Source: a virus | Lineage: Duplodnaviria; Caudoviricetes | Strand: one strand, 5' to 3' | IMG/VR virus record: IMGVR_UViG_3300030090_003111 | Coordinates: 3,406 to 67,405 of that record | DNA: 64,000 nt | Shown: in pieces, positions 3,543 to 62,692 of the stretch | Layout of the letters: each line of letters opens with the position of its first letter | Position numbering within the stretch: position 1 is the first letter of the stretch | Translations under genes and position numbers: made by a program | The notes under the pieces: generated by a model | Seen by the model: the letters and a program-made list of their open reading frames with translations, nothing else | Database searches by the model: none | What the model was told of the DNA's origin: nothing

Positions 3543-3556
3543 GTAAGCTTTATATA
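3543..3556 (+). promoter_or_regulatory. BRE-TATA promoter (GTAAGCTTTATATA) upstream of a candidate small RNA
   Basis: Motif match; no credible ORF before the next promoter at 3646. Confidence 0.65.
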
Positions 3557-3575
3557 GTCTTACGCCGTATTAATA

Positions 3576-3641: not shown

Positions 3642-3645
3642 CAAC

Positions 3646-3659
3646 GAAAGCTTTATATA
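3646..3659 (+). promoter_or_regulatory. BRE-TATA promoter of the terminase operon
   Basis: Exact GAAAGCTTTATATA; AGGTGA RBS before ATG 3695. Confidence 0.8.
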
Positions 3660-3694
3660 GTCCTTTATGATTATATAATAACAGGTGAATACCT

Positions 3695-6071: not shown

Positions 6072-6085
6072 GAAAGCTTTATATA
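6072..6085 (+). promoter_or_regulatory. BRE-TATA promoter of head operon
   Basis: Exact motif directly after TerL stop. Confidence 0.8.
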
Positions 6086-8639: not shown

Positions 8640-8649
8640 GTGATGAAAT

Positions 8650-9048: not shown

Positions 9049-9063
9049 GTATAAGGTGAAAAA

Positions 9064-11941: not shown

Positions 11942-14900
11942 ATGGCAAATAGAATTTACCACAAGCGTAGTGCAAAAGGGTCAGACGTACCCTCTAATGC
12001 AGATTTAGAATTAGGTGAATTGGCAATCAATACGTATGATGGTAAACTATTTACTAAAAAAGATGATGGTAGTCCAAGCATTGTAGAATTAGGTGACAAA
12101 GGTCAAAAAGGAGATATAGGAGCTACAGGTTCTCAAGGACCTGCTGGACCACAAGGAGACCAAGGAGATAAAGGTCTAAAAGGTGTAGGAGGAGATAAGG
12201 GAGCCACTGGCGACAAAGGTCAAAAAGGTGGAGACGGACCTTCAGGTCCCGGTGGACCACAAGGTGACAAAGGTCAGAAAGGTGTTACTGGTGACGGAGG
12301 ACCAACTGGACCTACAGGACCACAAGGTGCACAGGGAGAAAAGGGTAGTTTAGGAGATAAAGGAGCTACTGGTGCAACTGGACCACAAGGTGATAAAGGT
12401 CAACAGGGAGCTACTGGTACTCAAGGACCTACAGGACCACAAGGTGGAAAGGGAGAACCCGGCGACAAAGGAGCTACGGGTGCTGGTGGACCACAAGGTG
12501 ATAAAGGTGCTACAGGTGCTGGAGGAGATAAAGGACAGAAAGGTGTAACTGGAGATACAGGACCACAAGGAAGTCAAGGACCTCAAGGAGCTCAAGGACC
12601 TCAGGGAGATAAAGGTGATACTGGAGACAAAGGAGCTACAGGTGCTCAAGGACCTACTGGACCTACAGGACCAACTGGACCACAAGGGGTTGCTGGTAGT
12701 GACGGTAGTGATGGTTCTGATGGAGACAAAGGAGCTCAAGGTGCTACTGGACCACAAGGTGACAAAGGACAGAAAGGTGTAACAGGTGCTACTGGACCAC
12801 AAGGAGACCAAGGTGCTACAGGACCTCAAGGAGATAAAGGAGCTACAGGTGCTCAAGGACCTACAGGACCTGACGGACCTACAGGACCACAAGGAACTGC
12901 TGGTGACAAAGGTGCTACAGGTGGACAAGGAGATAAAGGTGCAACTGGTGCTACAGGACCTCAAGGACCTACTGGAGACAAAGGAGCTACAGGAGCTACA
13001 GGACCACAAGGTTCTAAAGGAGCTACTGGTGCTACTGGACCTCAAGGAGATAAAGGAGCTACCGGTGATAAAGGTATAAAAGGAGAAGTTTCATTACCTG
13101 CTTCTACTTTCTTAATGCATGTAGATTTAACAGATACTACTACTGCACCATCGACAAACGGAGAGATTGTTTTAAACCATGCTACATTAGCAAACGTTAC
13201 ACAGTTATCTATTTTTGAAGATGATGAGAATGGTGGTACACTAGATAATATTCTAACAGATATGTTAGTAACAGGTAATAGAATTAAATTAGAAAAGAAA
13301 GATGACATAACCAATTATGTTACTTTCGAAATGACTGGCAATGGTTCTGACCAAGGTGATTACAGAAATGTTGCAGTTACACATGAGGGCGGGGCAAGTG
13401 GAGCAGTCACTTCAACGTTCTCAGATGAAGATGATGTTTATTTTTCCCTTTCGATGAAAGGAGATACAGGACCTCAAGGACCTGTCGGACCACAAGGACC
13501 TACAGGACCACAAGGAGATAAGGGTGCAGCTGGAGACAAAGGTGCTACTGGTGCACAAGGAGATAAAGGAGCTACAGGAGCTACAGGACCTCAAGGACCT
13601 CAAGGAGACAAAGGAGCTACAGGTGCAGTGGGACCTCAAGGACCTACTGGGGACAAAGGAGCTACAGGAGCTACTGGACCTGATGGACCTCAAGGACCTA
13701 CAGGAAGCACAGGACCACAAGGAACTGCTGGTGACAAAGGTGCTCAAGGAGCTGCTGGTGATAAAGGAGCCACTGGTGCTACAGGACCTCAAGGACCTCA
13801 AGGTGACCAAGGAGATAAAGGTGCAACAGGAGCTCAAGGTGATAAAGGAGCTGCTGGAGATAAAGGCGCTACTGGTGCTACAGGACCTCAAGGACCTACA
13901 GGAAGTACAGGACCACAAGGACCTGCTGGAGATAAAGGAGCTACAGGAGCTACAGGACCAACTGGACCTGATGGACCAACTGGACCTCAAGGAGCTCAAG
14001 GTGATAAAGGAGCGACAGGCGCTCAAGGACCTACTGGAGACCAAGGACCTACTGGAGATAAAGGAGCTACAGGAGCTACAGGACCTCAGGGAGACAAAGG
14101 TGCTACAGGAGCTACAGGACCTACAGGACCTACAGGACCTACTGGACCTCAAGGACCACAAGGTGCAACAGGAGACAAAGGAGCAACAGGAGACAAAGGA
14201 ACTCAAGGTGCACAAGGTGACAAAGGTGCTACTGGTGCAACTGGACCACAAGGACCTCAAGGAGATAAAGGAGCAACTGGTGCTCAAGGACCACAGGGAG
14301 ATAAAGGTGCTGCTGGTGACAAAGGTGCTCAAGGAGCTGCTGGTGATAAAGGAGCTACTGGTGCTACAGGAGACCAAGGACCACAAGGTAGTAAAGGAGC
14401 TACAGGAGCTACAGGACCTACAGGACCTGATGGACCAACTGGACCTACAGGACCACAAGGTTCTAAGGGAGCAACCGGTGCAACTGGACCTCAAGGACCT
14501 ATCGGAGATAAAGGTGGTAAAGGTGCAACAGGAGACCAAGGACCACAAGGAGATAAAGGATTAAAGGGTGCTGGTGGTGACAAAGGAGCTACAGGAGCTA
14601 CTGGACCTCAGGGACCTCAAGGTGCACAAGGACCTACAGGTGCTCAAGGTACTGTTGGTGGTGTTAACTATACCTTTAGTACAACCACTACTGATTCAGA
14701 CCCCGGCCAAGGTGTTGTTAGATTTAATAATTCAACTTTTGGTTCTATTACAAAAATATTTATAGACGATGCAGACAGTAATGGTACTGATTTCCAAACA
14801 TGGATAGATTCCTTCGATGATACAGACGAAGGTACATTGACAATCAATTCTGCTGATGCTACAGATGCAACATTCTGTAACTTTACAGTAGATTCAATTA

Positions 14901-17470
14901 CAGGAGCTTCTGGATATACAAAACTTAATGTTTCACCATTATCAGGTGCAGCACCAAGTAATTCAGAAGCAATAGTATTACAATTCTCAGCTTCTGGTTC
15001 AAAAGGAGCTCAAGGTGCACAAGGTGACAAAGGAGCTACTGGTGCAACTGGACCTCAAGGACCTCAAGGAGATAAGGGTGCTGCTGGAGACAAAGGTGCT
15101 ACTGGTGCACAAGGACCTCAAGGAGACAAAGGTGCTGGTGGAGACAAAGGTGCTACTGGTGCTACAGGACCACAAGGACCTCAAGGTGACCAAGGAGATA
15201 AGGGTGCTACTGGTGCAACCGGACCTCAAGGTCCACAAGGTGATAAAGGAGCTACTGGTGCTACAGGACCTCAGGGAGATAAAGGTGCTGCTGGAGACAA
15301 AGGAGCTACAGGTGCTACAGGACCCGATGGACCACAAGGACCTGCTGGACCTACAGGACCTCAGGGAGACAAAGGAGCTACTGGTGCTACTGGACCTCAG
15401 GGAGATAAAGGTGCTGCTGGAGACAAAGGTGCTCAAGGAGCTCAAGGACCTCAAGGTTCAACAGGACCTCAAGGACCTCAAGGAGCTGCTGGTGACAAAG
15501 GAGCTACAGGAGCTGCTGGTGATAAAGGAGCTACTGGTGCAACTGGACCACAAGGACCGCAAGGTGACCAAGGAGATAAGGGTGCTACTGGTGCAACCGG
15601 ACCTCAAGGTCCACAAGGAGCTCAAGGACCTCAAGGTTCAACAGGACCTCAAGGACCTCAAGGAGCTGCTGGTGATAAAGGAGCTACTGGTGCAACTGGA
15701 CCACAAGGACCTGACGGTGACAAAGGAGCTACAGGAGCTGCTGGACCACAAGGACCTACTGGAAGCACAGGACCTACAGGACCTAATGGACCACAAGGAG
15801 ACAAAGGTGCTGGTGGTGACAAAGGACCAACTGGTGAACCAGCTGGTTTACAATATAACTTTGACACAAGTACAACCATGGCCGACCCCGGTTCTGGAGA
15901 ATTCAGATTAAACCATGCAACCGCAGCAAGTATTACCTCTATAGCATTTTCATCATTTGACCAGAATGCTGGTTCAAATTCATTATATACATATCTAGAC
16001 GCATATGACGGCTTCCCAACCGATATACGTTTAGTTGATATGTCAGACAATACTAATTTTATAATTCTAAGAACAGATGCATCTAGTGCATATCAAACAG
16101 ATTTTGCTAATACACATGTTCTTGTTACAATATCATCTGTACAAGCCAAGAGTGATACCGCAGTGAGTAACATATTCTCATCTGGTAGAACAGTACAGTG
16201 TACTTTTGCAGCTACAGGAGCCAAAGGTCAGAAAGGTGCCGCTGGAGGCACTGGACCTACAGGACCTACAGGACCTACAGGACCTACTGGACCACAAGGT
16301 TCACAAGGTTCACAAGGTTCACAAGGTGCTCAAGGAGACAAAGGTCAGAAAGGAGAAGAAGGTTCTGGCGGTGGTGGCGGAGGTAAAGGTCAAAAAGGTG
16401 AGCCCGGAGCTACAGGACCTACAGGACCACAAGGACCTGCTGGAAGTGATGGTAGTGATGGTGACAAAGGAGCTACTGGTGCACAAGGACCAAGCGGAAC
16501 TGGACCTACTGGACCTCAAGGACCTGCTGGACCAACTGGACCACAAGGTGATAAAGGTCAGAAAGGAGAAGAAGGTGGTGGAGGTTCTGGTTCTAAAGGA
16601 CAAAAAGGTGAACCCGGTGGTACTGGTTCACAAGGACCTGCTGGACCTACAGGACCTACAGGACCAACTGGACCAACTGGACCAACTGGGCCTACAGGAC
16701 CACAAGGAGACAAAGGAGCTACAGGTTCACAAGGACCTGCTGGACCTCAAGGTTCTCAAGGTTCTCAAGGACCTCAAGGAGACAAAGGAGAACCCGGAGA
16801 CCCCGGTCCTCCGGGAGAAGGAGGCGGTGGAGCATGTCACTTCCCACCCGGTACTTGTTTCGCACCCGGCACACCTGTCATGTTAGCTGATGGTAGTAGC
16901 AAACCTATCGAAGAGATAGACGACGGTGAAGAGATATTAATTTACAATATGGAAACTGGTGAGTATGACGTAGAAGTATTAGAACATGGTTCCTACGCTA
17001 CATACAGAAACCACTTCATAGATTTACACTTTGACGACGGTTCAAAGATTACATCTACACATGAACACCCTTATATAACAGCAGATAAGGAATGGGCTGT
17101 TGTAGAATTTGAAGACTGGATGAGAGAAAGATATCAAGAAGACACAGTATTTAAGAATATAAAACTTGGTTCTGTACTAGGTATACCAACAGGTGCTAAA
17201 GGATTAGGTATCAAAGGTAAGCAACTAGTAGAGAAGAAAGTAGTTGATGTAGATAAACACTGGTCTACTGGTGACAGACAAAATGCAGTATGGAATATTA
17301 TAACCAAATCTAACAACTACGTTGTTGATGGTTTAGTGGTTGGTACAGAAACCGACATGGACTGGGACGAGATAAACGTTTACGCTCTAACAGAGTATGG
17401 TATGTCTTTAGAAGATATGTATCAGATGTTTATCGAAGAAGGAACAATACCAGAGAGGAGGTCTAAATGA
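11942..17470 (+). CDS. Collagen triple-helix fibre: Mtd_N-like N-terminus, Gly-X-Y runs with three globular inserts, C-terminal Hint domain
   Basis: N-terminus IYHKRS...[21 protein letters not shown]; long GXY repeats; Hint [13 protein letters not shown]...THEH...YVVDGLVV at 16856-17347. Confidence 0.92.
12092..16821 (+). repeat. Coding collagen Gly-X-Y repeats ([15 protein letters not shown])
   Basis: 9-nt periodic repeats such as GGACCACAA/GGAGATAAA/GGAGCTACA, interrupted at about 13088-13460, 14657-14995 and 15841-16210. Confidence 0.95.
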
Positions 17471-22421: not shown

Positions 22422-22435
22422 GAAAGCTTTATATA
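22422..22435 (+). promoter_or_regulatory. BRE-TATA promoter of tail operon
   Basis: Exact motif right after upstream stop. Confidence 0.8.
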
Positions 22436-40009: not shown

Positions 40010-40023
40010 TATATAAAGCTTTC
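40010..40023 (-). promoter_or_regulatory. BRE-TATA promoter, near-leaderless
   Basis: Exact motif, 20 nt before ATG 39989. Confidence 0.8.
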
Positions 40024-42016: not shown

Positions 42017-42030
42017 TATATAAAGCTTTC
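42017..42030 (-). promoter_or_regulatory. BRE-TATA promoter of primase operon
   Basis: Exact motif. Confidence 0.8.
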
Positions 42031-42836
42031 TATACTTCTAGGTTTAATTCCACCTCTTTTTCAGTAGTTCCTGATAAAGATAGGAATATTTCCGACTTGT
42101 AATCTAATACAACTTCGGGAAACCTTCTACCTGCTACAAGTGTGATAAATCCTTGGTCACCACCGAAAAGATTCTCATCCCACCATCCTTCTGGTATAAG
42201 TTTCATTACTTCTCCATAGAAGTCTATCATATATTCTCTTTCACCTATCCATGTCCCACTACATAGATGTTTAAAAGGAGAACCCAGCCACTCATAGACT
42301 TCTTCTGTTTCTCTGACCTTAGCTAGTTCATTCTTCCATGAACCTAAATCTAAAGGTGCATCTCCTGATGAATCTGCTAGTCCTTGTCCTGTTTTTAGAT
42401 TAGGCCATTGATTTAACTCTGCACCAAACACGCAACGTGCTGTTTTCTTAACAAACTTACCTAATGCTTCATCACAAGCATCGTAACCTAACAACATAAC
42501 ATCAGTAGCATCTAAAGCCATTACATACTTAGTTTGTACAATCTTTAAATACTTCTCCATTTTTCTAATTTTATCTAAGAAATCAAATGGTTGTTTCATA
42601 GGTATAACTATAAGTCTGTCTTTTATACCCATCTGTTGCATACAGTTTTCTAACAACGTAGATTCACCGGGCACACTCCATGTTATAACAGTTAGTTCAT
42701 CACTTAACTGTCCATGACAAGGATTTTCTTTGAAATAGTGTGTAACTGCATCGTCCCAGTATTTTTCGTGCTTTGCGGGGCCATTGGCGTGCACGATAGA
42801 CACCATGTTGTTAGATAGTTTGTTTCTAAAATACAT
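42030..42836 (-). CDS. PLOD/LH3-type glycosyltransferase domain, circularly permuted
   Basis: LTVITW, LDATDV, FGAE..WP, LCSGTWIG, GDQGFIT, LDYKSEIF match LH3 GT motifs recalled from memory; HANGPAK segment is at the N-terminus. Confidence 0.8.
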   Translation of the reverse strand: MYFRNKLSNNMVSIVHANGPAKHEKYWDDAVTHYFKENPCHGQLSDELTVITWSVPGESTLLENCMQQMGIKDRLIVIPMKQPFDFLDKIRKMEKYLKIVQTKYVMALDATDVMLLGYDACDEALGKFVKKTARCVFGAELNQWPNLKTGQGLADSSGDAPLDLGSWKNELAKVRETEEVYEWLGSPFKHLCSGTWIGEREYMIDFYGEVMKLIPEGWWDENLFGGDQGFITLVAGRRFPEVVLDYKSEIFLSLSGTTEKEVELNLEV

Positions 42837-43429
42837 TAAAGAGACTCCACCATCTCAGTCATATCTGGTTGTTTTTCCCATAGATTTATAGCTATGGCGT
42901 ATCTCTTACCCTTTGTTATCTCAGTAACAGCATGTAACTGACCTGCATCAAATATAACTAATCTATTAGGCACTGGTGCAATCAATTCGTATGGTGCTGT
43001 CAAGTCCATCTCTTTAGTGTCATATATCTTCAGATATCCACCTTCACACTGTGGCTCTCCCATAGGAGGATAATATACTGTTCCTAGTTTAGGACTCACT
43101 ATTTCTCCTGTCTGGTGCCAGTGTGCTTCATCTTTATCAAAGTGATGGTTTAACGCATAACCTTGATTAATAGCTGCACCATTAGTGATAACTTTATCTT
43201 TAGATAATATACCTGTCCAGTGTTCAAAACCTTCTAGAGATGTACCTTGTAGTTGTGGTGGACAATTGTTTCTCCAAATAGTTTCAATCAATTCATGTCT
43301 AGTGTCCATAGGAGAATTACTATTCCACCATCCTTTCCACCACCTGTAACCTTCTTTCCAAAAATCTTCATCTTTTTGAATTTTAGAAAGTAATTTTTCG
43401 TCCTTTACAAAATCGTCAATTATTATCAT
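42836..43429 (-). CDS. 2OG-Fe(II) oxygenase (prolyl-4-hydroxylase-like)
   Basis: HFD...EGGYL...NRLVIFD...LHAV...KRYAIAINLW; ATGA coupling gives start 43429. Confidence 0.88.
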   Translation of the reverse strand: MIIIDDFVKDEKLLSKIQKDEDFWKEGYRWWKGWWNSNSPMDTRHELIETIWRNNCPPQLQGTSLEGFEHWTGILSKDKVITNGAAINQGYALNHHFDKDEAHWHQTGEIVSPKLGTVYYPPMGEPQCEGGYLKIYDTKEMDLTAPYELIAPVPNRLVIFDAGQLHAVTEITKGKRYAIAINLWEKQPDMTEMVESL

Positions 43430-44070
43430 CGGTAATGGTCTCCTCCAACCCATAATACAAGTGATTCTCTAGTACCTTTGGTAACTTCAGAAACTCTATG
43501 CATCATATAAGATGGGAATATTACTACTGTTCCTTTACCACGTGGTGCATCTAATGGATTTTGTCCTCTCCATAGTTGTAACTTACCACCTTCATAGTCA
43601 TCTGGGTCTGTAAGTTGTACGGTCAAACTAACCTTTCTATGTCTCTGCATACCGTGTCCTGCATCCATGTGCCAGTCATAGTGGCCTCCGCCTTCCTTAT
43701 ATATGGTATGTTGTATAGCATCTCTACCGTGAGACAAATTAAAGTTCCATACATTTCTATTGGCTTCTTCTATCATGGTCCATAATCTTTTATATAACCA
43801 TTCGAAATCATCACCAGTATAAACTTTCTTACCATTTGTATATGGTGCGTTACCATATAACCATCTTACTTCTGATTTTCTTATACCATCGTTCGCAGTA
43901 TCACTGTCACCTGTCGTACCTGATTCAGGTGGTACTCTCATAGCTTCCTTTTGTATTGTTTTTATTTCTTCATCGGTAAATGCTTTTTCAAAATAATAAA
44001 ATTCAGCCATATTTACATGACTCTCATCTATTCCATCTACCCACATATTTACTTTTTCTAATTCCATCAT
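43426..44070 (-). CDS. 2OG-Fe(II) oxygenase (PKHD/P4H-like)
   Basis: HYDWHMD, RKVSLTVQL, YEGGKL, IFPSYMMHRV, GTRESLVLW. Confidence 0.9.
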   Translation of the reverse strand: MMELEKVNMWVDGIDESHVNMAEFYYFEKAFTDEEIKTIQKEAMRVPPESGTTGDSDTANDGIRKSEVRWLYGNAPYTNGKKVYTGDDFEWLYKRLWTMIEEANRNVWNFNLSHGRDAIQHTIYKEGGGHYDWHMDAGHGMQRHRKVSLTVQLTDPDDYEGGKLQLWRGQNPLDAPRGKGTVVIFPSYMMHRVSEVTKGTRESLVLWVGGDHYR

Positions 44071-44621
44071 TACTCCTCATTAAAAAAGAATGTTTGAAAC
44101 AGTCTTGCTGATTCTAAATCTTCTCCAAAATAATCATCTGCTGCGTGCCATAAATCACCATTAAATATTATAGCTCTGTTATAAACGTTAGATATAACAT
44201 CTTCCCTAGTCCATTTATCATAATTATTACCATCACCTTCTATAGCTGCTCCATTATCATCAAAGATACGAGAGCCTGTTTCTTTATGTTTATAAAAGGA
44301 TGTACCTGAATTAGGTGCAGGGTCTGGATGTAAATATACTAAACATGACCAGTCTGTAGCAGTATCTGCGTGTACCCATGTTGGTGTATCCTTTGTTACA
44401 TACTGAAAAGAACCTGTGTATTCTCCTACTTTCCAGTGCATTTCATCTATGTTAATATTCATTATTCTTTCTAGATGTGCTCTAACATCGTCTTCTACGA
44501 ATGTTTCTGTTCTCATGCCGGGATAATTACCTTTGACTCCAAACTCTTGTGATAGAGCAAATTCTCTAATCGCGTCAGGGTCATGATAAAATCCATCAAT
44601 TACTATTATTTCTCTATTCAT
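44070..44621 (-). CDS. 2OG-Fe(II) oxygenase (DUF6445-like)
   Basis: IIVIDGFYHDPDAIREFAL, YPGMRT, WVHAD, SGTSFYKH, NRAIIF...WHAA...RLFQTFF. Confidence 0.85.
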   Translation of the reverse strand: MNREIIVIDGFYHDPDAIREFALSQEFGVKGNYPGMRTETFVEDDVRAHLERIMNINIDEMHWKVGEYTGSFQYVTKDTPTWVHADTATDWSCLVYLHPDPAPNSGTSFYKHKETGSRIFDDNGAAIEGDGNNYDKWTREDVISNVYNRAIIFNGDLWHAADDYFGEDLESARLFQTFFFNEE

Positions 44622-45229
44622 TATAACTCCTTTTTAACAAAAGAGACAATAATGTATCTTTTCCCTTTTGTAGTTGGTCTTCCACCATGTCTGTGTGTCA
44701 CACTAGGAAATAGTGTACATGCACCTGCTTTAGGATTAGCTAGTATTTGTTGTCTTGGAAACCATGTTCCTCCACCCTCAAAGTTAGTATTTAATCCTAC
44801 TGTAAAAGTATAATCAGCATGGTCATGGTGTATATCCAAAGCTGACTGGTCTTCATCAGTATACTTAGCTATAAAATCTTCTGATGTAGCATTATTCCAT
44901 GATGTACCTACTAGTCCCCATATATGTCTAGCTATAGGGTGGCAATATGTTTTAAGAACGTAGTTATACATTTCTTTTAAATCTAAGTCATCAAGTAACA
45001 TATCAGTTGTTGGGTAAAAGTTATGTCTTTCTTTAGTCCACTTGCCATTATCTTCAGCGTGTTCTATTATTAAATCACAGAATTCTTTTGTAAATAAAGG
45101 GAACCTATAAATCTCAGGACCTACTTCTTCTACTACTAAATCCCACTGTTTATCTCTAGTTCCTCTAGATATCATCTTCTTTGCCCATGCTTCTGGGTCT
45201 ATCTTATATGCACTTAGTTTGGGGTTCAT
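44621..45229 (-). CDS. PLOD-like lysyl hydroxylase catalytic domain
   Basis: IYRFPLFTKEFCD..I...E..G.W, PTTD, FIAKY..EDQ..L..HHD..YT..VGLN..FEGGGT, HRHGGRPTT.G.RYIIVSFV parallel the LH3 C-terminal domain. Confidence 0.85.
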   Translation of the reverse strand: MNPKLSAYKIDPEAWAKKMISRGTRDKQWDLVVEEVGPEIYRFPLFTKEFCDLIIEHAEDNGKWTKERHNFYPTTDMLLDDLDLKEMYNYVLKTYCHPIARHIWGLVGTSWNNATSEDFIAKYTDEDQSALDIHHDHADYTFTVGLNTNFEGGGTWFPRQQILANPKAGACTLFPSVTHRHGGRPTTKGKRYIIVSFVKKEL

Positions 45230-46011
45230 TTCACAGCTCCGTCAGGTAGACCTGTATCACTACCTACTACAGCAAATTCTCTTTGCCATACTACATGTGG
45301 GTCTACTGCATATGCATTCATGGTGGGAGGGTATTTAAAGCTTACGTCGCTACGTGGATGTTCAACAAATGTAGCAGATAAAAACTCATCTGCTGGTATT
45401 ATAGCTTTGTGTACATTATATTTTCTTATCTTTTCTATACCTGATTTAGATAATACATACCCATACGTGCAGTATGAAAAGTTTGGTTTGACTATACCTG
45501 ATACTATAGGTTCTTCAGGTATTGTTTGTGGTACTCTTCCAAGATATAACAAATCCCAATCTATACCCATAGTTTCTAAAGTATCTATGGTTACATCTCT
45601 TTTAATTTCCATAGCTTTAGTAAATACAGCGTCATCTTCAAGTATAGTTACAGGTCCATCACATTCATTCCATATAGACCAATGGCTTAGTGTACAACCT
45701 ATTTCTCCTCCTGTTAAAGGTCTTGACCACCATTTAGCCCATGATTGGTCTATTGATAGAGCTTCTCCTTCATCCATCTCCCAATCAAATAGACCGAATC
45801 CATTCTCTTCTAACCACTTATCCGTTATATCTTTTCCTACTTTGTTGTAAGGCCAGTGTGTGGTAAACTCAACACGTAAGTCAGGGGCTATAAAACCTTC
45901 TTCATTCTTTCTACCTTCTTCTTCTATTTCAAAACCATTTTCTCTTAGCATGGTATCACAAAGAAGTCTTCTATCTTCTCTGGTTGGTATGTTAATGATA
46001 TAGGTCTTCAT
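45226..46011 (-). CDS. GT25 glycosyltransferase, procollagen galactosyltransferase (COLGALT)-like
   Basis: RPLTGGEIGCTLSH..IW, ILEDD, WDLLYLGR, SYCTYGYVLS..G..K, IPADEFL....HP...AYAVDP...SDT; ATGA coupling to polB gives start 46011. Confidence 0.85.
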   Translation of the reverse strand: MKTYIINIPTREDRRLLCDTMLRENGFEIEEEGRKNEEGFIAPDLRVEFTTHWPYNKVGKDITDKWLEENGFGLFDWEMDEGEALSIDQSWAKWWSRPLTGGEIGCTLSHWSIWNECDGPVTILEDDAVFTKAMEIKRDVTIDTLETMGIDWDLLYLGRVPQTIPEEPIVSGIVKPNFSYCTYGYVLSKSGIEKIRKYNVHKAIIPADEFLSATFVEHPRSDVSFKYPPTMNAYAVDPHVVWQREFAVVGSDTGLPDGAVK

Positions 46012-48227
46012 ACCCACTCCATAAGACTCTGTTGTTTCCTATCTAGTAAGGTGAGCGGTGCTTTCTTTTGTATAGTATGTGCTAGACCAAATTTATCTAA
46101 TAACTTAGATACAATGTTCCAATAATACTGTACATCTAAATCTGACTTAGATTTCACAAGTTCCTTTATCCTATACCCATCTTTTGTTTTATAATACTCG
46201 TAGGTAGTTCTTATCTCTGGTTGTATACCTACTGTTATACCTTGTTCTACTAATGGTATCATCATGTCCGTTTCTGATTTATAATCTTCGAACTTCCTGT
46301 TTAGTGTCCTTCTTTGTAAGAACATCTCCATGGGTAACTCATCAAAGTTATATATATCTTCAATAAACTTCGAATTCACTCTATTATCCAATCTTGCGTC
46401 AATTAACCTATCAAGAATGGATTTGTAAAACTCGCTTCTTGTTGAAGCTTTAAAAGTCGAGCCATGTTTGGTAAGACTATTGTCCTCATTACGAAGGCAA
46501 TAATTACCAATTTGTATCCAAATTCCTTCTTTAAAAACATCTTTATCCAACGATATCCATTTAGATTCTACATTTGGTATTGTAGCTTCTAATATCAATC
46601 TTAATCTTTTAGTTAGCCATTCTACGTCAATATCACAATTAGTATTGATACCATCAGTGTGAACATAAACCACAGCTTTATCTCCATATTTTTTCCTGAT
46701 GAGTTCGATTCCCGTAGTAAGTAAAAACCTAGCAACCGCAGTAATTGCAATACCAACAGACATATCACCGTAGTTGAGGTAAGGGTTTGTATTAGCTCCA
46801 TAGAATGTATTCACCATAATCTTTAACGCATTGGACTTACTATCTCCTTCTTTAGTTCCCATTTCCTTAAAAGGTTTCCTAAGTTCTGTGAATTGTTTAC
46901 ACATATCATAGAGACAGCTGCGTCTATTACTGTCTATTCTAACCTTTACTCTTTTACCTATACGATTGTCAGGTATATAAAGGTTTCCATTCTTGAACTC
47001 TAATTTGTCACTATACTCATCATATCCTACAATTGTAGTAGTATCAGGACCTAAATTAAGAGCCATAGCTATAGATGGATAGAAAGAAGCAAAGTCCACT
47101 TTTATATTCTTAGCGTGGAATCCCGGTTCAAACAAATCTATATATGCAGCTTGAAAGTTACCTTTAGGTCCTTTGTATATATCTGTATGTCTGTCTTTGT
47201 TTATATCATCTGTTATGATATTCTGTTCATACAGCGCTCTACCTTGTAGAATCTTTGTGACATATGAACTTGGTGCGTTGATATATGTTTCTAGTGGCAC
47301 ACCAATAAATTCCGCAGTGAACTCCAGTCTTGGATAGTAGTGGTCAAAAAGATACTTTGTACAATCTACATCAGACAGGACATAATCGTGGATTTCAGAT
47401 AAGCTGTAATCAAGTAAATCCTTTTCAGCAAAGTCCAATTCAATTGGTTCTAGACCGAAATATTTACTCACAGGCTTAAGACCACGTGGTAATCCTGAGA
47501 GTGCGTAATCAAGGCGTGTATGTCTTAAGATATCAAGAACTACTCTACCTCCAGCACGCATTCGTAAATCGTCAGAATCTTTCTGAGGTTGCCAACCATA
47601 GTCTGACCCATCACGATTCAACAATTTCTTGTAGTTACGTATGCCATGATAGGCTGCACGATATAGAATCTGAGGGATATCATAACCTACAAGGTTATAT
47701 CCATAGATTATATCTGGGTCATATTCTTTAACGAACTTAGCAAAATCCATAAGGACTTGCTTGTCATCTTCTCCATCCCATAGATAGACTTCACGTTCTC
47801 CGGTTGAAGTGACAATCCCGATTGCCACTACGGGGTAGTTTTCCCCGAAGGGAAACGACCCGTCAGGACTATGAGTCTCTATATCAAAACAGAGAGATTT
47901 CACAGGTTGGTCATTTGCGAATTTATTAAAGTAATCTGGATGCTCTATTACGAGTCTATCCATAATATTTTCTCTACCTCCATCAAGTATTAGGCTCGAT
48001 GGAAGCTCTTCACCGGCTCTATAATACTCCTTTCGCAGCAAGATAGAGCCCTCTTTGCCTGTTCTATTGTACTGTTTGCCAGTCTCAGCATCAGGTACAT
48101 AACAGTAGGGCTTATAAGGTACAACGTGGCTTTCTTTCTTACCATTACGCCACATTATACTTTGTAAGTTACCAGTCTCTAGGTTAACTGTGTTGGGGCT
48201 ACATATACCAATAAGGGGTACTTTCAC
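46008..48227 (-). CDS. polB: Family B DNA polymerase with 3'-5' exonuclease
   Basis: FDIET, YNLVGYDIP, YVLSD exo motifs; DFASFYPSI, KIMVNTFYG, YVHTDG polymerase motifs. Confidence 0.95.
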   Translation of the reverse strand: MKVPLIGICSPNTVNLETGNLQSIMWRNGKKESHVVPYKPYCYVPDAETGKQYNRTGKEGSILLRKEYYRAGEELPSSLILDGGRENIMDRLVIEHPDYFNKFANDQPVKSLCFDIETHSPDGSFPFGENYPVVAIGIVTSTGEREVYLWDGEDDKQVLMDFAKFVKEYDPDIIYGYNLVGYDIPQILYRAAYHGIRNYKKLLNRDGSDYGWQPQKDSDDLRMRAGGRVVLDILRHTRLDYALSGLPRGLKPVSKYFGLEPIELDFAEKDLLDYSLSEIHDYVLSDVDCTKYLFDHYYPRLEFTAEFIGVPLETYINAPSSYVTKILQGRALYEQNIITDDINKDRHTDIYKGPKGNFQAAYIDLFEPGFHAKNIKVDFASFYPSIAMALNLGPDTTTIVGYDEYSDKLEFKNGNLYIPDNRIGKRVKVRIDSNRRSCLYDMCKQFTELRKPFKEMGTKEGDSKSNALKIMVNTFYGANTNPYLNYGDMSVGIAITAVARFLLTTGIELIRKKYGDKAVVYVHTDGINTNCDIDVEWLTKRLRLILEATIPNVESKWISLDKDVFKEGIWIQIGNYCLRNEDNSLTKHGSTFKASTRSEFYKSILDRLIDARLDNRVNSKFIEDIYNFDELPMEMFLQRRTLNRKFEDYKSETDMMIPLVEQGITVGIQPEIRTTYEYYKTKDGYRIKELVKSKSDLDVQYYWNIVSKLLDKFGLAHTIQKKAPLTLLDRKQQSLMEWV

Positions 48228-48706
48228 TCATCCTCCCAACGAGTACCTGTTCTGTCAGGTGTGGATATCTTCCATCTGTCACCTACAGGCCAGTAATAAG
48301 GATATGACTCGATATCAAAAGCATACTGTATTGCTTCTTCAGGCCATATCTGTGCGTAAAACTCAAAGTCTTTACGTAGTAAGTTAAGTCTGTGTGACTT
48401 GTGTATCTTGTCGTTACCTAGCCACTCTGGATACTCGATAGGTCCAGTAATCTCATAGAGTTGCATAGTGTTGTTGTAACCACGTGCTTTCCATTGTGTA
48501 ATCATAGTGTTGACATACTCCTTGAGTGCATTCTCATAACCATGCCACATAATCTTAGCTGGATGGTTGAGCCAACCTTTGTGTGGATAGTTAGGTTGCA
48601 TAGCGTTGATTAGTTGCATACCCTCAACACGTTGCTTACCCAAGCGTTTGTAGTCTAACATTTGTGCAGACTCTGCAAAGTCTGGTACTGGTAGGAACGT
48701 TTGCAT
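48224..48706 (-). CDS. Pyrimidine-dimer DNA glycosylase / endonuclease V-like protein
   Basis: MQTFLP...LDYKRLGKQRVE...HPAKIMW.GYE.AL..Y...W..RGY; TAATG coupling gives start 48706. Confidence 0.8.
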   Translation of the reverse strand: MQTFLPVPDFAESAQMLDYKRLGKQRVEGMQLINAMQPNYPHKGWLNHPAKIMWHGYENALKEYVNTMITQWKARGYNNTMQLYEITGPIEYPEWLGNDKIHKSHRLNLLRKDFEFYAQIWPEEAIQYAFDIESYPYYWPVGDRWKISTPDRTGTRWEDE

Positions 48707-48882
48707 TATTGACACTCCTCACATTTCTCGCTGTTGAACACTTCTAAGTGTTGTCCGCATTCTATACATTTTCTATATTTCATTTCTTTTCTCCTTTTAT
48801 TTCCTTTACCATCGCATGAACAGTTCTGATGTCCATATATACAATTGCATATATAAAAGTTTGTCTCGTTACTAATCGTCAT
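48706..48882 (-). CDS. Cys-rich small protein (58 aa)
   Basis: CNC...CSC...CIEC...CEEC. Confidence 0.5.
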   Translation of the reverse strand: MTISNETNFYICNCIYGHQNCSCDGKGNKRRKEMKYRKCIECGQHLEVFNSEKCEECQ

Positions 48883-49024: not shown

Positions 49025-49194
49025 ATATCTAACTCCCTGTATTCATCAGAAGATAGGAAACCAGTCAATGTTCCTCTACCTCCGATGTTTCTTCTCATAT
49101 ATCTTAAAAAGTCTATTGTAACTTCTAATCCTTTGTCTTCTAAATCTTCGTTGAGATATTGTAAATGTCTAATCAAATCTTCTATCACTATCAT
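49021..49194 (-). CDS. Hypothetical 57-aa protein
   Basis: Hand-translated MIVIEDLIRHLQYLNEDLEDKGLE...; ATGA coupled at both ends. Confidence 0.65.
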   Translation of the reverse strand: MIVIEDLIRHLQYLNEDLEDKGLEVTIDFLRYMRRNIGGRGTLTGFLSSDEYRELDI

Positions 49195-49793
49195 TCTTTC
49201 TCCGCTACTTTAAGATACGCTTTGTTTGCTTTAAAGATAGGACCACGTAACTCTTCAGGTATATAGTTTATACCTTCCATGCCTTCTTCTAGGTTCTCTC
49301 TGAATAAACGTATGTATATATCGTGATTAGCACTTATATATTCATAGCCCTTTTCTAAGTCTTCCTCGTAATCTCTTACAAAGTTAATGATTTGATACGC
49401 TCTACCTAATGCTCTTGCATATCCATCAGCTTCAGGTGGACAACCAAGTATACGTGCCATCATACAACCTACTGACTCTGAAGAACCTTTACAGTATTCT
49501 AACATAGATACCATAGTATGTTTCTTTCTAACTAAGTCAGTAAACATAGCGTGATGGAAATCCTCTAACCATTCACCTTCAAACTGATATTTATCACTAA
49601 CCTCATGGAATTGTTCGATGACCATTCTGTATTGTTTGAAATCATTTTCAGCTTCTACTCCTTCTACCATCTCATCTATCACTCGTAGATAAGCGTATAG
49701 CTTATATATATCTTCTCTTATACTTCTAGGCCATTCATCAACACACGCAAAGAACGTAGTGCTGAACTCTTCCATTATATCTTTACATCTCAT
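49191..49793 (-). CDS. Phytoene/squalene synthase family (CrtB/HpnD-like), compact
   Basis: STTFF, LYAYLRVIDEMVE, LEYCKGSSESVGCMM, ARALGRAYQIINFVRDYEED. Confidence 0.82.
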   Translation of the reverse strand: MRCKDIMEEFSTTFFACVDEWPRSIREDIYKLYAYLRVIDEMVEGVEAENDFKQYRMVIEQFHEVSDKYQFEGEWLEDFHHAMFTDLVRKKHTMVSMLEYCKGSSESVGCMMARILGCPPEADGYARALGRAYQIINFVRDYEEDLEKGYEYISANHDIYIRLFRENLEEGMEGINYIPEELRGPIFKANKAYLKVAEKE

Positions 49794-50068: not shown

Positions 50069-50360
50069 CTTTTAGTACTCCTCTTTCTTTCCTATCAGTG
50101 AGTTTTAAGTAGTTCTCGTGTAATACTTCTACCAATGTCATGTCATACATATCAAATAGTCTTGCCATATACCACATTACATCACCAAGTTCTCCACGAA
50201 TCTCTTTGTACTTATCTCCATCTCCACGAACTTGTTTCTTGTATTTACCCAATACTTCTCCAACTTCGTTTGCTAAACCTATCATTAGGTATTCTTCTTC
50301 CTTTTCTTTAGGGTAGACTGCTGTCTCCCTTGTCCATTTCTTATATGTTTCAAAATCCAT
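50049..50360 (-). CDS. MazG-like NTP pyrophosphohydrolase
   Basis: GLANEVGEV..KYKK...ELGDVMWY...N..KL.DR..RG...G.GDNR. Confidence 0.9.
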   Translation of the reverse strand: MDFETYKKWTRETAVYPKEKEEEYLMIGLANEVGEVLGKYKKQVRGDGDKYKEIRGELGDVMWYMARLFDMYDMTLVEVLHENYLKLTDRKERGVLKGDGDNR

Positions 50361-50689
50361 TATATCACTAATTCCTCTGGTACCATATCTCTACGGTATA
50401 ACCAGCTTCTTTCTGCGGGTAGATATCTATATACTAAGTCAGCCTTTATATCACCTTGTATGGGCCAAGGCTTTATCAGTATCAAATCATTTGGTCTACA
50501 CCACATTCTACGTTTAAGTTTGCCGGGAATCCTTACCATTCTATTGTTACCATCTTCACAGAGAGCTGACATACGTGAGCCGCCAGACATTTCTCTGACG
50601 ACTGCATACTGCATATCACCACGTGGTAATTTACCCGCTCTCTTCTCTGTGCTTCCAGCTTTTGATTTCCTCGACTTCTTCTTTCCCAT
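50360..50689 (-). CDS. eif1a: Archaeal translation initiation factor aIF-1A
   Basis: LP...QYAVVREMSGGSRM..LCEDG..RMVRIPGKLKRRMW....DLILIKPW..QG..KADLVYRY...E..WL; GGAG RBS. Confidence 0.92.
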   Translation of the reverse strand: MGKKKSRKSKAGSTEKRAGKLPRGDMQYAVVREMSGGSRMSALCEDGNNRMVRIPGKLKRRMWCRPNDLILIKPWPIQGDIKADLVYRYLPAERSWLYRRDMVPEELVI

Positions 50690-57501: not shown

Positions 57502-57515
57502 TATATAAAGCTTTC
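57502..57515 (-). promoter_or_regulatory. BRE-TATA promoter
   Basis: Exact motif. Confidence 0.8.
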
Positions 57516-58170: not shown

Positions 58171-59029
58171 GTATAGACTCCGGTATCTGTGAGTATAGAC
58201 ACTCTGTCAACGACTTATCATCACGCCAACTATAGAACTTAGGATGACGAACGGACCCAGATGGGAACCAGCCATTACCTTTGGCAGTGAATACTTGACC
58301 GATATACTTGTCGGGATTGTCAGTGAACTCACGTCGCATAGCTTCAGTAAGACCACCACACTTTACGTCACAAGGCTTGTCAAACAGACTACCTCTGACA
58401 GCACCTACTTGACCAGCATACTTAGACTCAGGGTCAGCCATATCGAAACCAATACACATATACTCAATCTCTACCCGTTGTTTGATACGGATGTTTGCTT
58501 GAGGATAGTCATAGGCTTCGTTCTGTTTGAATACTAGACCCTCGAAGCCAGACATCTCTACGTAGTATTCCCACAGGTCTTCTACGTTATGAGTAGTATG
58601 AGCCATATCATAAGTGGGTGATACTCTGAAGTATTGTGATAGATACTTGTCTTTTAGTTTAGGTATAACATACTCGGCGATGTAAGATACATAGCCTTGT
58701 CTCGCACCGTATATCTCTTTGGATACATTACTACCTCGATACACAATACAATCAAAGGCATAGAACGCTTGGTTTGTATGAACAGGATGATTCTTGTTGT
58801 TTATATACTCACCTATAACTTCGTAGTGTATACCTTTGTCTTTTCCTTTATATACCCCGTGCTTCTTGAGTTTACCATTACGAGAGAATATTGCATACTC
58901 ACCGTCTTGGATAACCATTCTACCCCATATACCGTCATACTTAGGTTGAATATATCTGTATTGTGACAGAGATATATCATCCATATTGTCTTGGGTATAC
59001 TCGCTATACTTTGGTCTGTCTGTTATCAT
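58160..59029 (-). CDS. lig: ATP-dependent DNA ligase
   Basis: QPKYDG, GEY, FYAFD, EGLVFK, RIK, C-terminal OB fold RHPKF..WRDDK. Confidence 0.92.
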   Translation of the reverse strand: MITDRPKYSEYTQDNMDDISLSQYRYIQPKYDGIWGRMVIQDGEYAIFSRNGKLKKHGVYKGKDKGIHYEVIGEYINNKNHPVHTNQAFYAFDCIVYRGSNVSKEIYGARQGYVSYIAEYVIPKLKDKYLSQYFRVSPTYDMAHTTHNVEDLWEYYVEMSGFEGLVFKQNEAYDYPQANIRIKQRVEIEYMCIGFDMADPESKYAGQVGAVRGSLFDKPCDVKCGGLTEAMRREFTDNPDKYIGQVFTAKGNGWFPSGSVRHPKFYSWRDDKSLTECLYSQIPESIRAS

Positions 59030-61137
59030 ATCTTTAACACCTTCCTAATTAGTTTACTAAGCTCGATTGATAGCTTAGATGAATCTTCAATATACTTGTA
59101 GTTGGTAAACATATTACGCATCCAATGTTCGGATGCACCGGCAAAGCCTAACTGTATGACTGACCAGCCACGTGACTCTACGTGTTTGACACACTTGGCA
59201 GTATGCTCAATTGCACTTGCACCTCTATATGAAGCCGCTGAAGGCTGACCATCACTAAAGATAATCATAAGCTTATGCGACTGAGGTTGGTCAGTTTGTT
59301 CTACTACTCTGTCGGCTGATGCAACGATAGCATTACCGTCACGGTTTTCATACCTTGCACGCATACCACCCATACTTGTAGGGCGGTCGGAAGTGCGAGG
59401 ACCGAAGTATTCTATCATATCAGTCTGACCTCTACCACCTTCGTCGGCACTGTGACCGAATACCCAAAGGTTTAGTTGGTCATTACCACTCAATGCTTCT
59501 TTGACAGATATAGCGGCATCACGTGCGTGACGCATAGTGTATGAACCCATACTACCTGACTCGTCTACAAGTAGACATACATCCAATGGTTTATCCTGCT
59601 CAACAATGTCGAACTTGAATAGGTCAGAGCGACGCATAGGTATACGATGTAGCATACGCTTGTCAAGCTTACCTACCTTTTGGTTCCTGACAGTATACTT
59701 GTTCATATTACCATATAGTTGTATCTTACGCTTGAGTGAACCAATCACACCTTTCTTACGTGAGACAGCATCTCTATATACTTCTTTGTCTCTCGCAGTA
59801 TCTCTAGCAGTAGTCCAATTGATTTGTCTTTGACCATCAGCTATAGCGAGGCCCTTGTCCATATCATACTCTTCGTAGTCTGACTCTATCAAGCTACGTA
59901 TCTCTTCGATAACTTCACTATCAAGACCTTCACTTATATAGTCACTAAGCTCTACCCTTGCTTCACCACGTGCGTCACGTATAGGTGACTTACGTTCGAG
60001 TGCATCTTTGGCACGGGAGATAGCATCATCAGTCATACGGTCAAGAATCTTATCCATCTCACTGTCAGATAGTTCTATGTCTGATTCTGCAAACCTTGAT
60101 TTCATATCAGCGAATGCGTCATCTACCTCTGACATTACTTCTTTCATATCTATCTCATCGTCTTTAGCCATACGTTCGGCTGCTTTCTTAAGATAGTTGT
60201 ATAGGGATAAGATACAGGTATAAGTATTTTCTCTACTATCAAGACCCGTAGCTAATGCACGGGCAAAGAAGCGTATATGTGGGGCGTGTCGCTTTTTTCT
60301 ATCGTCATCAATAAGTGTAGGATAACGTATAAGCATCATAAGAGTATTGATAAGGTCAGCTAATGGTTGTGAAGATTCTTCGTCTATACCACTATCTGCG
60401 AAGTAATGTTCTTTAGTCTTCTCGATATAGTGAACGAAACCACCACACGTTTTAGCTAATTGCTTTTCGATATACTCATCTTCCACAATATTACATATAG
60501 AATGCAACAACCATTGTTCGTCACCATTCACACATGAGTCATACTTTTGTTTACGTTCCCACTCCATAAGGTCTTTGGAGTGTATAAGGTGTAGCTTTTC
60601 ATGGATAGCGAGACCTGACACAACGTCTAACTTTTCGTCATCGTGTTGTATCAGTTTACCATCTACTACTATTCTACCACTACGGATGTCAGTATAACCT
60701 GATGATGTGTTGGCAAACTCAAGAGTATGCTTGACAGTAGGGTCAACTACTTTACATAGGGAGTCAAGGTGTGACTTATGTTTAGCTAATCTCTTAGCAG
60801 TATCGTCATAACCATACGAACTACCTCCCCACATACCACTCAGTGTGGTAGAGCCACTGCCTGACCACCATGAGCTACCGCTACCCCATGTGAAACCACC
60901 ACCGGTTCTACCCCAAAGGTCACCGCTGGAGTATACGCTTGGTGCAGGTGTGATAGCTGTCTTAGCTGTGGTAGGATGAGCATACTCATCACCTACTACT
61001 CCATCAAGGTGGTTGCCACAGGTAGAACAACACTCGTTGTCATCTTCTTTAGTCTTTACCCAATCCTGACAGGTATAACACCAGCCTTCACTCTTATCGG
61101 CTGAAACAGCCCAATCGTCTATAGTGTAGATATCCAT
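59026..61137 (-). CDS. vWA (CobT-like) protein with N-terminal HExxH metalloprotease-like domain
   Basis: AIHEKLH...NIVED..IE; MIDAS LVDESGSM, NRDG, IFSDGQP. Confidence 0.88.
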   Translation of the reverse strand: MDIYTIDDWAVSADKSEGWCYTCQDWVKTKEDDNECCSTCGNHLDGVVGDEYAHPTTAKTAITPAPSVYSSGDLWGRTGGGFTWGSGSSWWSGSGSTTLSGMWGGSSYGYDDTAKRLAKHKSHLDSLCKVVDPTVKHTLEFANTSSGYTDIRSGRIVVDGKLIQHDDEKLDVVSGLAIHEKLHLIHSKDLMEWERKQKYDSCVNGDEQWLLHSICNIVEDEYIEKQLAKTCGGFVHYIEKTKEHYFADSGIDEESSQPLADLINTLMMLIRYPTLIDDDRKKRHAPHIRFFARALATGLDSRENTYTCILSLYNYLKKAAERMAKDDEIDMKEVMSEVDDAFADMKSRFAESDIELSDSEMDKILDRMTDDAISRAKDALERKSPIRDARGEARVELSDYISEGLDSEVIEEIRSLIESDYEEYDMDKGLAIADGQRQINWTTARDTARDKEVYRDAVSRKKGVIGSLKRKIQLYGNMNKYTVRNQKVGKLDKRMLHRIPMRRSDLFKFDIVEQDKPLDVCLLVDESGSMGSYTMRHARDAAISVKEALSGNDQLNLWVFGHSADEGGRGQTDMIEYFGPRTSDRPTSMGGMRARYENRDGNAIVASADRVVEQTDQPQSHKLMIIFSDGQPSAASYRGASAIEHTAKCVKHVESRGWSVIQLGFAGASEHWMRNMFTNYKYIEDSSKLSIELSKLIRKVLKI

Positions 61138-61493: not shown

Positions 61494-62654
61494 TTAGTCT
61501 CCCATTGATTGTATAGTCTGCATAACTTTTACTCTTTCTGTATCGTCACCTGCTTGGATAGGATAGAATGGTAGACATACCTGCTTGAGTGCTTCAAGCA
61601 TAGTCATACCATCTGCAACGTATTCAGCAGTGGACAAACACATACGTGTAGATACAGCAGTATTCAACTCTTCCGATTTGTAGAGATTTCTGACTCTACT
61701 TGCGAAGTCAGTGATACGTTCAGCGTCTACATCAGAGATAGTAGGAACTCTTATCTTAAGAAGTTCTGCTTCTTTATCTGCTGGTAGATACTCTAACTCG
61801 TATATACCTCCGGTAAATCTATCTTTCCATGCTCTATCTAAGTCATGGGCCGCACCCAAATACTCTCTACCAATGTTGGCAGTAGCATAGAAGAAAGCAC
61901 CGTCGTTTATCTGAACGGTATCAGCGTCATCACTCTCATCGAGTGCTAAGTATTTCTGTCCGTCAAGGACAGGCATAAGGATATTAGCTAAGTCACCGGT
62001 TCTATCTCTCGTGACTTCGTCAAGCATAATGAATGCACCCTTGTCATCTTGTAGGGCAGAGACAAATCTGGATGGTTTGAAGAATGTCCCACGCTCACTA
62101 TCATATTTAGTGTCACCGAGTATCTTTGCAGATGGATTCATAGTGTCACCAAAGTTGAAAGCATAGAATGGTTTGTTGGATATATCCGCCAATATTCTAC
62201 CGAGACTACTCTTACCACATCCGGATGGACCGGTAATCAATATACTCTTACCTCTGAAGATGTTTCTAAGCATAGTATAAAATGTCATACTATCAGCGAA
62301 CTTGAACTCTTCAGGGATATCAACACTACCCTTCAGCTTAGATAGGACTGTTGGTATATGTGGGGCAGGTGGCTCAGGTTCTACTTCTTCTTCTGCAACA
62401 GCAGGAGTAGTAAAATGCCATGCGTCTATATCATCCACTATTTCACTCCATTCGGAACGGGAGATATACTCACTATCACTATCATATTCTCCACAACACA
62501 GTTCCATATAGTCACTGCGTAGACGGTGTATACGTGTCTCTTTGTCCATACCTTTATAGTATTCTGTTCCTACTTCATCGGGGGAACTATCCTCATCATG
62601 CACGGGCTCTCTATCATAAGATAGGTCACCTCTTTCTATGTCTTTATAACTCAT
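61494..62654 (-). CDS. MoxR/CbbQ/NirQ-family AAA+ ATPase (CobS-like)
   Basis: GPSGCGKS, IMLDEV, ATAN, LDRAWKDRF, STR; ATG 62654 lies downstream of the predicted TSS. Confidence 0.9.
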   Translation of the reverse strand: MSYKDIERGDLSYDREPVHDEDSSPDEVGTEYYKGMDKETRIHRLRSDYMELCCGEYDSDSEYISRSEWSEIVDDIDAWHFTTPAVAEEEVEPEPPAPHIPTVLSKLKGSVDIPEEFKFADSMTFYTMLRNIFRGKSILITGPSGCGKSSLGRILADISNKPFYAFNFGDTMNPSAKILGDTKYDSERGTFFKPSRFVSALQDDKGAFIMLDEVTRDRTGDLANILMPVLDGQKYLALDESDDADTVQINDGAFFYATANIGREYLGAAHDLDRAWKDRFTGGIYELEYLPADKEAELLKIRVPTISDVDAERITDFASRVRNLYKSEELNTAVSTRMCLSTAEYVADGMTMLEALKQVCLPFYPIQAGDDTERVKVMQTIQSMGD

Positions 62655-62692
62655 TGTTTTTCTCTTCGTTATGGTCAATAATGTTTTAGGGG

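Follow-up and report, generated by a model that had tools for sequence, protein, structure and literature searches.

A predicted collagen lysine hydroxylation and glycosylation cassette, and a candidate collagen-like substrate, in a tailed virus with a probable archaeal host

We describe here a cassette of six genes that follows the family B DNA polymerase gene (polB) of a tailed virus, together with a collagen-like fibre gene of the same genome that is its predicted substrate. The window, that is, the whole stretch of DNA analyzed, comprises 64,000 nt (positions 3,406-67,405) of IMGVR_UViG_3300030090_003111, a 67.4-kb IMG/VR genome with an estimated completeness of 96%, which carries genes for an HK97-type capsid, a portal and a terminase. 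All six genes lie on the minus strand. In gene order they encode a family 25 glycosyltransferase (GT25, 45226-46011), a lysyl hydroxylase (LH, 44621-45229), three further 2-oxoglutarate (2OG)-dependent Fe(II) oxygenases, which we refer to by their Pfam families as DUF6445 (44070-44621), Oxy3a (43426-44070) and Oxy3b (42836-43453 as listed), and a second glycosyltransferase (42030-42836). The corresponding Pfam matches are Glyco_transf_25, an OGFOD2-like model for the N-terminal portion of hydroxylases of the PLOD type, DUF6445, 2OG-FeII_Oxy_3 twice, and GT_PLOD, every one of them exceeding its curated cut-off.

The polymerase gene (46008-48227, minus strand; Pfam DNA_pol_B_exo1 and DNA_pol_B) immediately precedes the cassette and overlaps the GT25 start codon in an ATGA. 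The other junctions are likewise ATGA or TAATG overlaps, so that from the polB/GT25 boundary (46011) through GT25/LH (45229), LH/DUF6445 (44621) and DUF6445/Oxy3a (44070) to Oxy3b and the last gene (42836) the reading frames run into one another, and because of these overlaps we consider polB and the six genes of the cassette to be translationally coupled. The fifth gene most likely starts at 43429 in place of 43453, with an in-frame ATG that shares an ATGA with the stop codon of the fourth gene. An earlier note on this DNA had described six abutting, coupled genes after polB, and its description of that arrangement stands, the one revision being to the listed start of the fifth gene.

The LH gene encodes a stand-alone hydroxylase domain of the PLOD type. 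In a search against the PDB, its residues 11-199 match human LH3 (E = 4e-24), mimivirus L230 is matched in its LH domain (E = 1e-20), and prolyl hydroxylases reach only about 8e-4. Its HHD, HRH and KRY segments align to the LH3 counterparts that supply the HxD motif, the distal histidine and the 2OG-binding arginine, and in an alignment of 13 diverse homologs H134, H179, H181 and R191 are invariant and D136 is kept in at least 90%, the distal iron ligand being one of the invariant H179/H181 pair. The GT25 protein, for its part, exceeds the Pfam cut-off comfortably (PF01755, 56 bits against 24, with the model spanning residues 60-135), and COLGALT1 is its only PDB match above noise (E = 4e-21), residues 94-246 aligning with COLGALT1 373-534, which belong to the catalytic GT2 domain. 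It is a predicted hydroxylysine galactosyltransferase, although at 261 residues it consists of one domain and lacks GT1, and hence does not share the two-domain GT1-GT2 architecture of COLGALT. Its Glu-Asp-Asp motif aligns with that of COLGALT1, where the motif binds manganese in the catalytic site (PMC12003778). The COLGALT1 alignment extends well beyond the stretch matched by the Pfam model, and in phages GT25 is fused to LH, so that the enzyme may be closer to COLGALT than to the GT25 enzymes of bacterial lipopolysaccharide synthesis. The likenesses of these two genes to LH3 and COLGALT1, which the earlier note had pointed out, are thus borne out by the searches, and the HMMER alignments contain the motifs that it named.

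The last gene of the cassette is a predicted second, glucosyl, transferase. Its sequence match is weak, at 30.9 bits against a Pfam cut-off of 27 for GT_PLOD and an E value of 0.002 to the glycosyltransferase (GT) domain of LH3. A structure model built with 40 homologs from an exhaustive HMMER search (predicted local distance difference test score, pLDDT, 94) superimposes on the human LH3 GT domain (6wfv) with a Z score of 17.9 and a root-mean-square deviation of 2.4 Å over 183 residues at 26% identity, and on mimivirus R699 with a Z score of 16; the next family, GT6, reaches about 11. In the structural alignment, residues 44-268 of the model pair with LH3 35-235, and the 43 residues that precede them contain an HxNGP strand (12-20) which HMMER places where the LH3 GT domain has its C-terminal end. 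Because a strand that is N-terminal here aligns to that C-terminal end, the enzyme is, as modeled, a circular permutant of the LH3/R699 type of GT-A glycosyltransferase; the gene had been described as tracking the LH3 GT domain, which holds for the fold and misses the permutation. D109, D112 and H16 correspond to the manganese ligands Asp112, Asp115 and His253 of LH3, and W144 to its gate residue Trp145. Among 41 homologs, H16 and D112 are invariant and D109 is nearly so.

The three remaining enzymes resemble the LH in keeping their metal and 2OG ligands, which are conserved across all four oxygenases of the cassette. In the DUF6445 protein (Pfam PF20043), H84, D86, H159 and R173 are invariant, and its homologs flank fusion proteins of GT4, GT25 and LH domains beside phage collagens. 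Oxy3a (PF13640), in which H134, D136, H191 and R201 are invariant, has the prolyl-hydroxylase fold: its structure model (pLDDT 78) gives Z scores of 17-18.6 to PHD2, to a Pseudomonas prolyl 4-hydroxylase and to the collagen prolyl 4-hydroxylase of PBCV-1 (vCPH). Oxy3b, a second PF13640 protein that with the revised start spans 42836-43429, conserves an HHFD...H motif, and its homologs were found in close relatives only. Sequence searches of the PDB with DUF6445 and Oxy3b returned no match.

The predicted substrate is a collagen-like fibre protein of 1842 residues (11942-17470, plus strand; Pfam Collagen, E = 2e-157), whose gene lies in the structural module, between capsid and tail genes. It contains 389 G-X-Y triplets, the commonest being GAT (76), GPQ (73), GDK (68) and GPT (40). 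Lysine occupies the Y position in 84 triplets and the X position in none, a split far beyond chance, and proline shows the opposite preference (X in 133 triplets, Y in 6). A lysine in Y followed by glycine (X-Lys-Gly) is the site used by lysyl hydroxylases, and 93 of the 116 lysines of the fibre stand in G-x-K-G, so that the dozens of such sites previously claimed for this virion collagen are confirmed by count. On these grounds the LH is predicted to hydroxylate the X-Lys-Gly lysines of the viral fibre. Two further properties of the protein may be recorded. Its C-terminus (16835-17470) carries a Cys-initiated, Hint-like domain (a weak Pfam Hom_end_hint match, residues 1639-1666) followed by an acidic tail, an arrangement suggestive of autoprocessing at that end of the fibre. 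Its collagen runs are also broken by three non-collagen segments, each about 110-135 residues long (at about 13091-13456, 14657-14992 and 15842-16249, or residues ~384-505, 906-1017 and 1301-1436); by eye they resemble one another and have in common a short motif, N-H-A-T or N-N-S-T.

The association of these enzymes with collagen-like fibres recurs in other viruses. In metagenomic and IMG/VR relatives whose LH is 76-95% identical to that of the window, polB is followed by these six genes with their order unchanged. Of the records linked to the window by their terminase, three (70-96% complete) hold a collagen gene together with LH, GT25, GT_PLOD and Oxy_3 genes, while none of the five was found in a 100%-complete, 81-kb relative whose terminase is 70% identical or in one 46%-complete record. 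Within this small sample, cassette and collagen are thus all-or-none, as expected if the one serves the other; an equal occurrence of the cassette in relatives without collagen, which had been named beforehand as grounds for abandoning the idea, was looked for, and the two collagen-less relatives, one complete and one partial, lack the cassette as well. In one relative, IMGVR_UViG_3300009104_000017, the collagen gene is split over both contig ends (3-158 and 66537-67304), and the assembly therefore probably represents a genome that is circularly permuted or terminally redundant. The permuted glycosyltransferase has its nearest relatives (35-37% identity) on other contigs, in clusters of GT25, LH and GT_PLOD with shuffled gene order. 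Some relatives encode a second, longer GT25 of about 447 residues (L014, 4935-6275; L188, 1916-3262), which in L188 also has a faint sulfotransferase match, and these proteins hint at further modifications of the fibre.

Beyond these close relatives, at least 300 IMG/VR viral contigs carry a relative of the window LH, and we surveyed the best 80 of the viral loci with an LH for fusions and gene neighborhood. In most of them LH forms the C-terminus of a fusion protein, as GT4-GT25-LH (~780 residues), GT4-LH (~560-610) or GT25-LH (~456-613), and its domain is 45-48% identical to the window LH. In most, too, a large collagen-like open reading frame precedes the fusion gene by 1-3 kb, usually with a homolog of Oxy3a between the two; indeed, no other partner accompanies collagen and LH in phage loci as constantly as Oxy3a. 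The collagen-like proteins of these loci have lysine in 11-48% of their Y positions and almost none in X. A cultured representative is cyanophage S-CAM9 (NC_031922.1; features at 399-5891 and 7414-9255 of the stretch examined, L003), where a tail fibre gene, gp222, is followed by two oxygenase genes and then by gp218, a GT25-LH fusion annotated as hypothetical; in gp222, GQK and GPK abound within a collagen stretch of 59 triplets. We note that S-CAM9 is a tractable model in which the chemistry could be tested. Through domain fusion, conserved neighborhood and co-occurrence, then, LH, GT25, GT_PLOD, Oxy3a and DUF6445 are tied to collagen-like fibres.

On this basis we think it likely that the cassette hydroxylates and glycosylates the collagen-like fibre of the virus itself. 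In the pathway that we propose, the PLOD-type LH would use Fe(II), 2-oxoglutarate and O2 to convert the Y-position lysines, which stand in G-X-K-G and mostly in G-D-K-G-A-T, into hydroxylysine; the COLGALT-like GT25 would transfer a first sugar onto the new hydroxyl; and the permuted LH3/R699-type enzyme would add a second. The three other 2OG oxygenases might carry out further hydroxylations of the same fibre, one of them having the prolyl-hydroxylase fold and 133 X-position prolines being available. Since the cassette is co-translated with replication genes, the enzymes would precede the structural proteins. We infer the substrate, the order of steps, the sugars and the targets of the extra oxygenases, and for the sugars (galactose, then glucose) and their order we do so by analogy with known systems. 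The idea of a hydroxylysine-glycosylated fibre made by stand-alone enzymes, put forward in the earlier note, is accordingly supported in silico by homology, by intact catalytic residues, by co-occurrence and by the phage fusions.

Several observations weigh against this proposal. About 25 kb separate the collagen gene from the cassette, which sits in the replication module, and the co-occurrence sample is small, with everything present in four records and nothing in one complete and one partial record. The role of Oxy3a as a collagen prolyl hydroxylase is one that its fold would fit, but several of the phage collagens with which it is paired have only 1-3 prolines in more than 300 triplets, as against the 133 X-position prolines of the window fibre, and in view of these proline-poor partners Oxy3a may act on another residue. 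In the permuted glycosyltransferase, Tyr114 of LH3, which stacks on uridine diphosphate, is replaced by Thr111. By eye, D227-Q228 presumably corresponds to Asp191-Gln192 of LH3, with Asp190 replaced by Gly; Q228 is nearly invariant among the homologs. The enzyme thus departs from the GT_PLOD family in its topology, at Tyr114 and apparently in the Asp190/Asp191 pair, and with Tyr114 changed and a single catalytic Asp kept, its donor and acceptor are uncertain. Elsewhere the permuted domain is fused to B12/radical SAM, GT2 and GT64 domains (homologs P0147, P0232 and P0242), so that membership of this family alone is no proof of a collagen substrate.

Cellular homologs of the LH add to these reservations. 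The family is rare in cells, with 35 loci among 185,579 species representatives, none of them archaeal and most of them in the Thiotrichaceae. There it is chromosomal, and the proteins of Thiothrix, Thiolinea, Leucothrix and Cocleimonas are the closest cellular relatives of the window LH (55-60% identity); Thiothrix litoralis (L005, 10001-10627) is one example, with similar loci in L191-L214. No GT25, GT_PLOD or collagen was found within 10 kb of a Thiotrichaceae LH, and since these genes are solitary, the family may have other, non-collagen substrates in bacteria. In a rough FastTree tree, computed with no support values and from a set that leaves aside animal PLOD and COLGALT, mimivirus and the GT25 enzymes of bacterial lipopolysaccharide synthesis, the Thiotrichaceae clade is sister to the clade of the window, and gene flow between these bacteria and viruses, in whichever direction, is likely. 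It could be argued, then, that the enzymes modify proteins other than the fibre, such as the host surface or its S-layer or other virion proteins, and that the collagen co-occurs with them incidentally. The solitary bacterial genes and the distance between a replication operon and the fibre gene would fit such a role, and papers on Poseidoniales viruses do treat 2OG oxygenases and glycosyltransferases as auxiliary or as serving general tail glycosylation. We nevertheless regard it as unlikely: characterized lysyl hydroxylases act on X-Lys-Gly, a site that the fibre offers 93 times, the cassette is all-or-none with collagen among the relatives, and in most of the surveyed viral loci the LH fusions tightly adjoin collagens with lysine in Y.

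Position after polB also raises the possibility that the oxygenases and glycosyltransferases act on viral DNA, hydroxylating a base and then glycosylating it, as in T4 or in the base J pathway. Translational coupling to the polymerase within a replication module is what such a role would lead one to expect, and some 2OG oxygenases of phages modify nucleic acids (Iyer et al., 2010; PMC2938197). The best matches of the cassette, however, are to hydroxylases of protein lysine and proline and to glycosyltransferases of collagen, with no TET/JBP or AlkB enzyme among them, and neither the phage fusions nor their adjacency to collagen would be expected of a DNA-modifying system. On homology and gene context we therefore reject DNA modification, which we hold to be very improbable.

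The chemistry of the modification is less constrained than its target. By analogy with animals the product would be glucosyl-galactosyl-hydroxylysine (Glc-Gal-Hyl), and we entertain this as a serious possibility without going so far as to expect it. GT25, GT_PLOD and LH make up exactly the animal set, and the Glu-Asp-Asp motif and the gate tryptophan are conserved. It is also possible, though we would not call it probable, that the fibre is modified by a chemistry unlike that of animals, through other sugars, a single sugar (Glc-Hyl, as made by L230) or sugars carried by other hydroxylated residues, a case that overlaps with the pathway proposed above. In phage versions a GT4 enzyme of the GT-B fold replaces GT_PLOD, the equivalents of Tyr114 and Asp190 differ in the permuted glycosyltransferase, the presence of four different oxygenases implies more than one kind of hydroxylation, and R699 and L230 demonstrate that viral enzymes of this type differ in specificity (PMC9546862).

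The virus that encodes this cassette probably infects a marine archaeon. A gene for the archaeal translation initiation factor aIF-1A lies at 50360-50689 (score 96.7 against an NCBIfam cut-off of 91), and the 13-mer AAAGCTTTATATA, which combines a transcription factor B recognition element (BRE) with a TATA box, occurs 33 times when near-matches are counted, where 9.5 are expected, and no shuffle reached 33 in our motif search. Exact copies lie in intergenic gaps, where a start codon follows at a distance of about 20-60 nt, and they point in the same direction as the genes downstream. They stand at 1963-1975, 3647-3659, 6073-6085 and 22423-22435 on the plus strand and at 40010-40022, 42017-42029 and 57502-57514 on the minus strand, and the copy at 42017-42029, directly after the stop codon of the cassette, heads the next transcription unit. 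The motif looks like the archaeal-type promoter of the virus, splitting its genome into transcription units. Because an aIF-1A gene and a repeated BRE/TATA motif are both present, an archaeal host is supported, and with it the earlier description of an archaeal virus. A search of genome contigs with aIF-1A found no relative, and a protein search returned sequences of a viral clade only, which comprises more than 300 clusters in marine metagenomes. Compared with cultured phages, polB and the large terminase subunit (TerL) have distant matches only, in Salinibacter, Bacillus and Halogranum viruses, which neither confirm nor reject the label "magrovirus." The window also encodes a VWA/CobT-like protein (59026-61137) and an AAA/CobS-like protein (61494-62678), and genes of this kind are compatible with descriptions of both Poseidoniales viruses and thaumarchaeal viruses. 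Its further cargo includes a 200-residue squalene/phytoene-synthase-like protein (49191-49793) and a pyrimidine-dimer glycosylase resembling T4 endonuclease V (48224-48715).

In animals, PLOD1-3 (LH3 having the order GT-AC-LH) and COLGALT1/2 (GT1-GT2) produce Glc-Gal-Hyl on X-Lys-Gly. The window encodes the same three catalytic families and retains their metal sites (H134, D136, H179-H181 and R191 in LH, the Glu-Asp-Asp of GT25, and the DxxD, histidine and gate tryptophan of the permuted glycosyltransferase), and its substrate motif is likewise a lysine in the Y position. In contrast to the animal enzymes, those of the window are unfused, have neither the AC domain, the non-catalytic GT1 of COLGALT nor endoplasmic reticulum targeting, are only about 25-30% identical in sequence, and include a glycosyltransferase with a permuted topology and Thr in place of Tyr114. 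Mimivirus encodes L230, an LH and glucosyltransferase that produces Glc-Hyl, R699, a galactosylhydroxylysyl glucosyltransferase, R655, a putative GT25, and several collagens, among them L71. It resembles the window virus in carrying both collagen-like proteins and homologs of LH, GT_PLOD and GT25, but it is a giant virus of amoebae, whereas ours is a 67-kb tailed virus with a probable archaeal host. The window enzymes differ as well in being all single-domain, in forming one coupled operon, in the permuted glycosyltransferase and in the three extra oxygenases. L230 and R699 are the documented case of collagen lysine hydroxylation and glycosylation outside animals, with specificities of their own (PMC9546862).

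The phage GT-LH fusions share with the window their GT25, Oxy3a and DUF6445 partners and their Lys-in-Y collagens, but there LH forms part of a fusion with GT25 and/or GT4, directly after the collagen gene. The window, in contrast, has split genes unlinked from collagen, a PLOD-type glycosyltransferase in place of GT4 and a probable archaeal host. Its LH has the single-domain architecture of the Thiotrichaceae proteins, which differ in being solitary. Iyer et al. (2010) described tandem dioxygenase arrays in cyanophages and predicted that other dioxygenase families hydroxylate bacterial collagen-like proteins (PMC2938197), and the papers on Poseidoniales viruses report genes for 2OG-Fe(II) oxygenases, prolyl 4-hydroxylases and glycosyltransferases while leaving collagen and lysyl hydroxylase unmentioned. 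Our search of the literature found no description of collagen-lysine modification for viruses of bacteria or archaea, in line with the earlier statement that none was known for an archaeal virus. The virus-encoded modification of collagen lysines is, as a kind, already known from mimivirus, and the system extends beyond archaeal viruses, given that cyanophages such as S-CAM9 have it. What is new here is the arrangement as split, single-domain genes, the permuted PLOD-type glycosyltransferase that completes an animal-like triad, and the probable archaeal host.

Glc-Gal attached to hydroxylysine counts as a signature of animal collagen, with mimivirus the only outside example known to have biochemical support. 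Here the whole enzyme set is present as small separate genes, together with a G-X-K-G fibre, in a virus with a probable archaeal host, and the same LH is attached to collagen fibre genes in hundreds of marine phage contigs, cultured cyanophages among them. The enzymes, being small, may express easily in bacteria, which could make them useful for the production of modified recombinant collagen. If our reading is correct, collagen fibres bearing sugars would be a common material on the surface of marine viruses, many auxiliary metabolic genes now labeled as 2OG-Fe(II) oxygenases would need reinterpretation, and there would be a direct route to testing the origin of the animal pathway. It is conceivable, although we regard it as doubtful, that the single-domain LH, GT25 and GT_PLOD of archaeal and bacterial tailed viruses represent the ancestral modular state and that the animal enzymes and L230 are later fusions; if so, a hallmark of the animal extracellular matrix would have arisen in the virosphere of marine prokaryotes.

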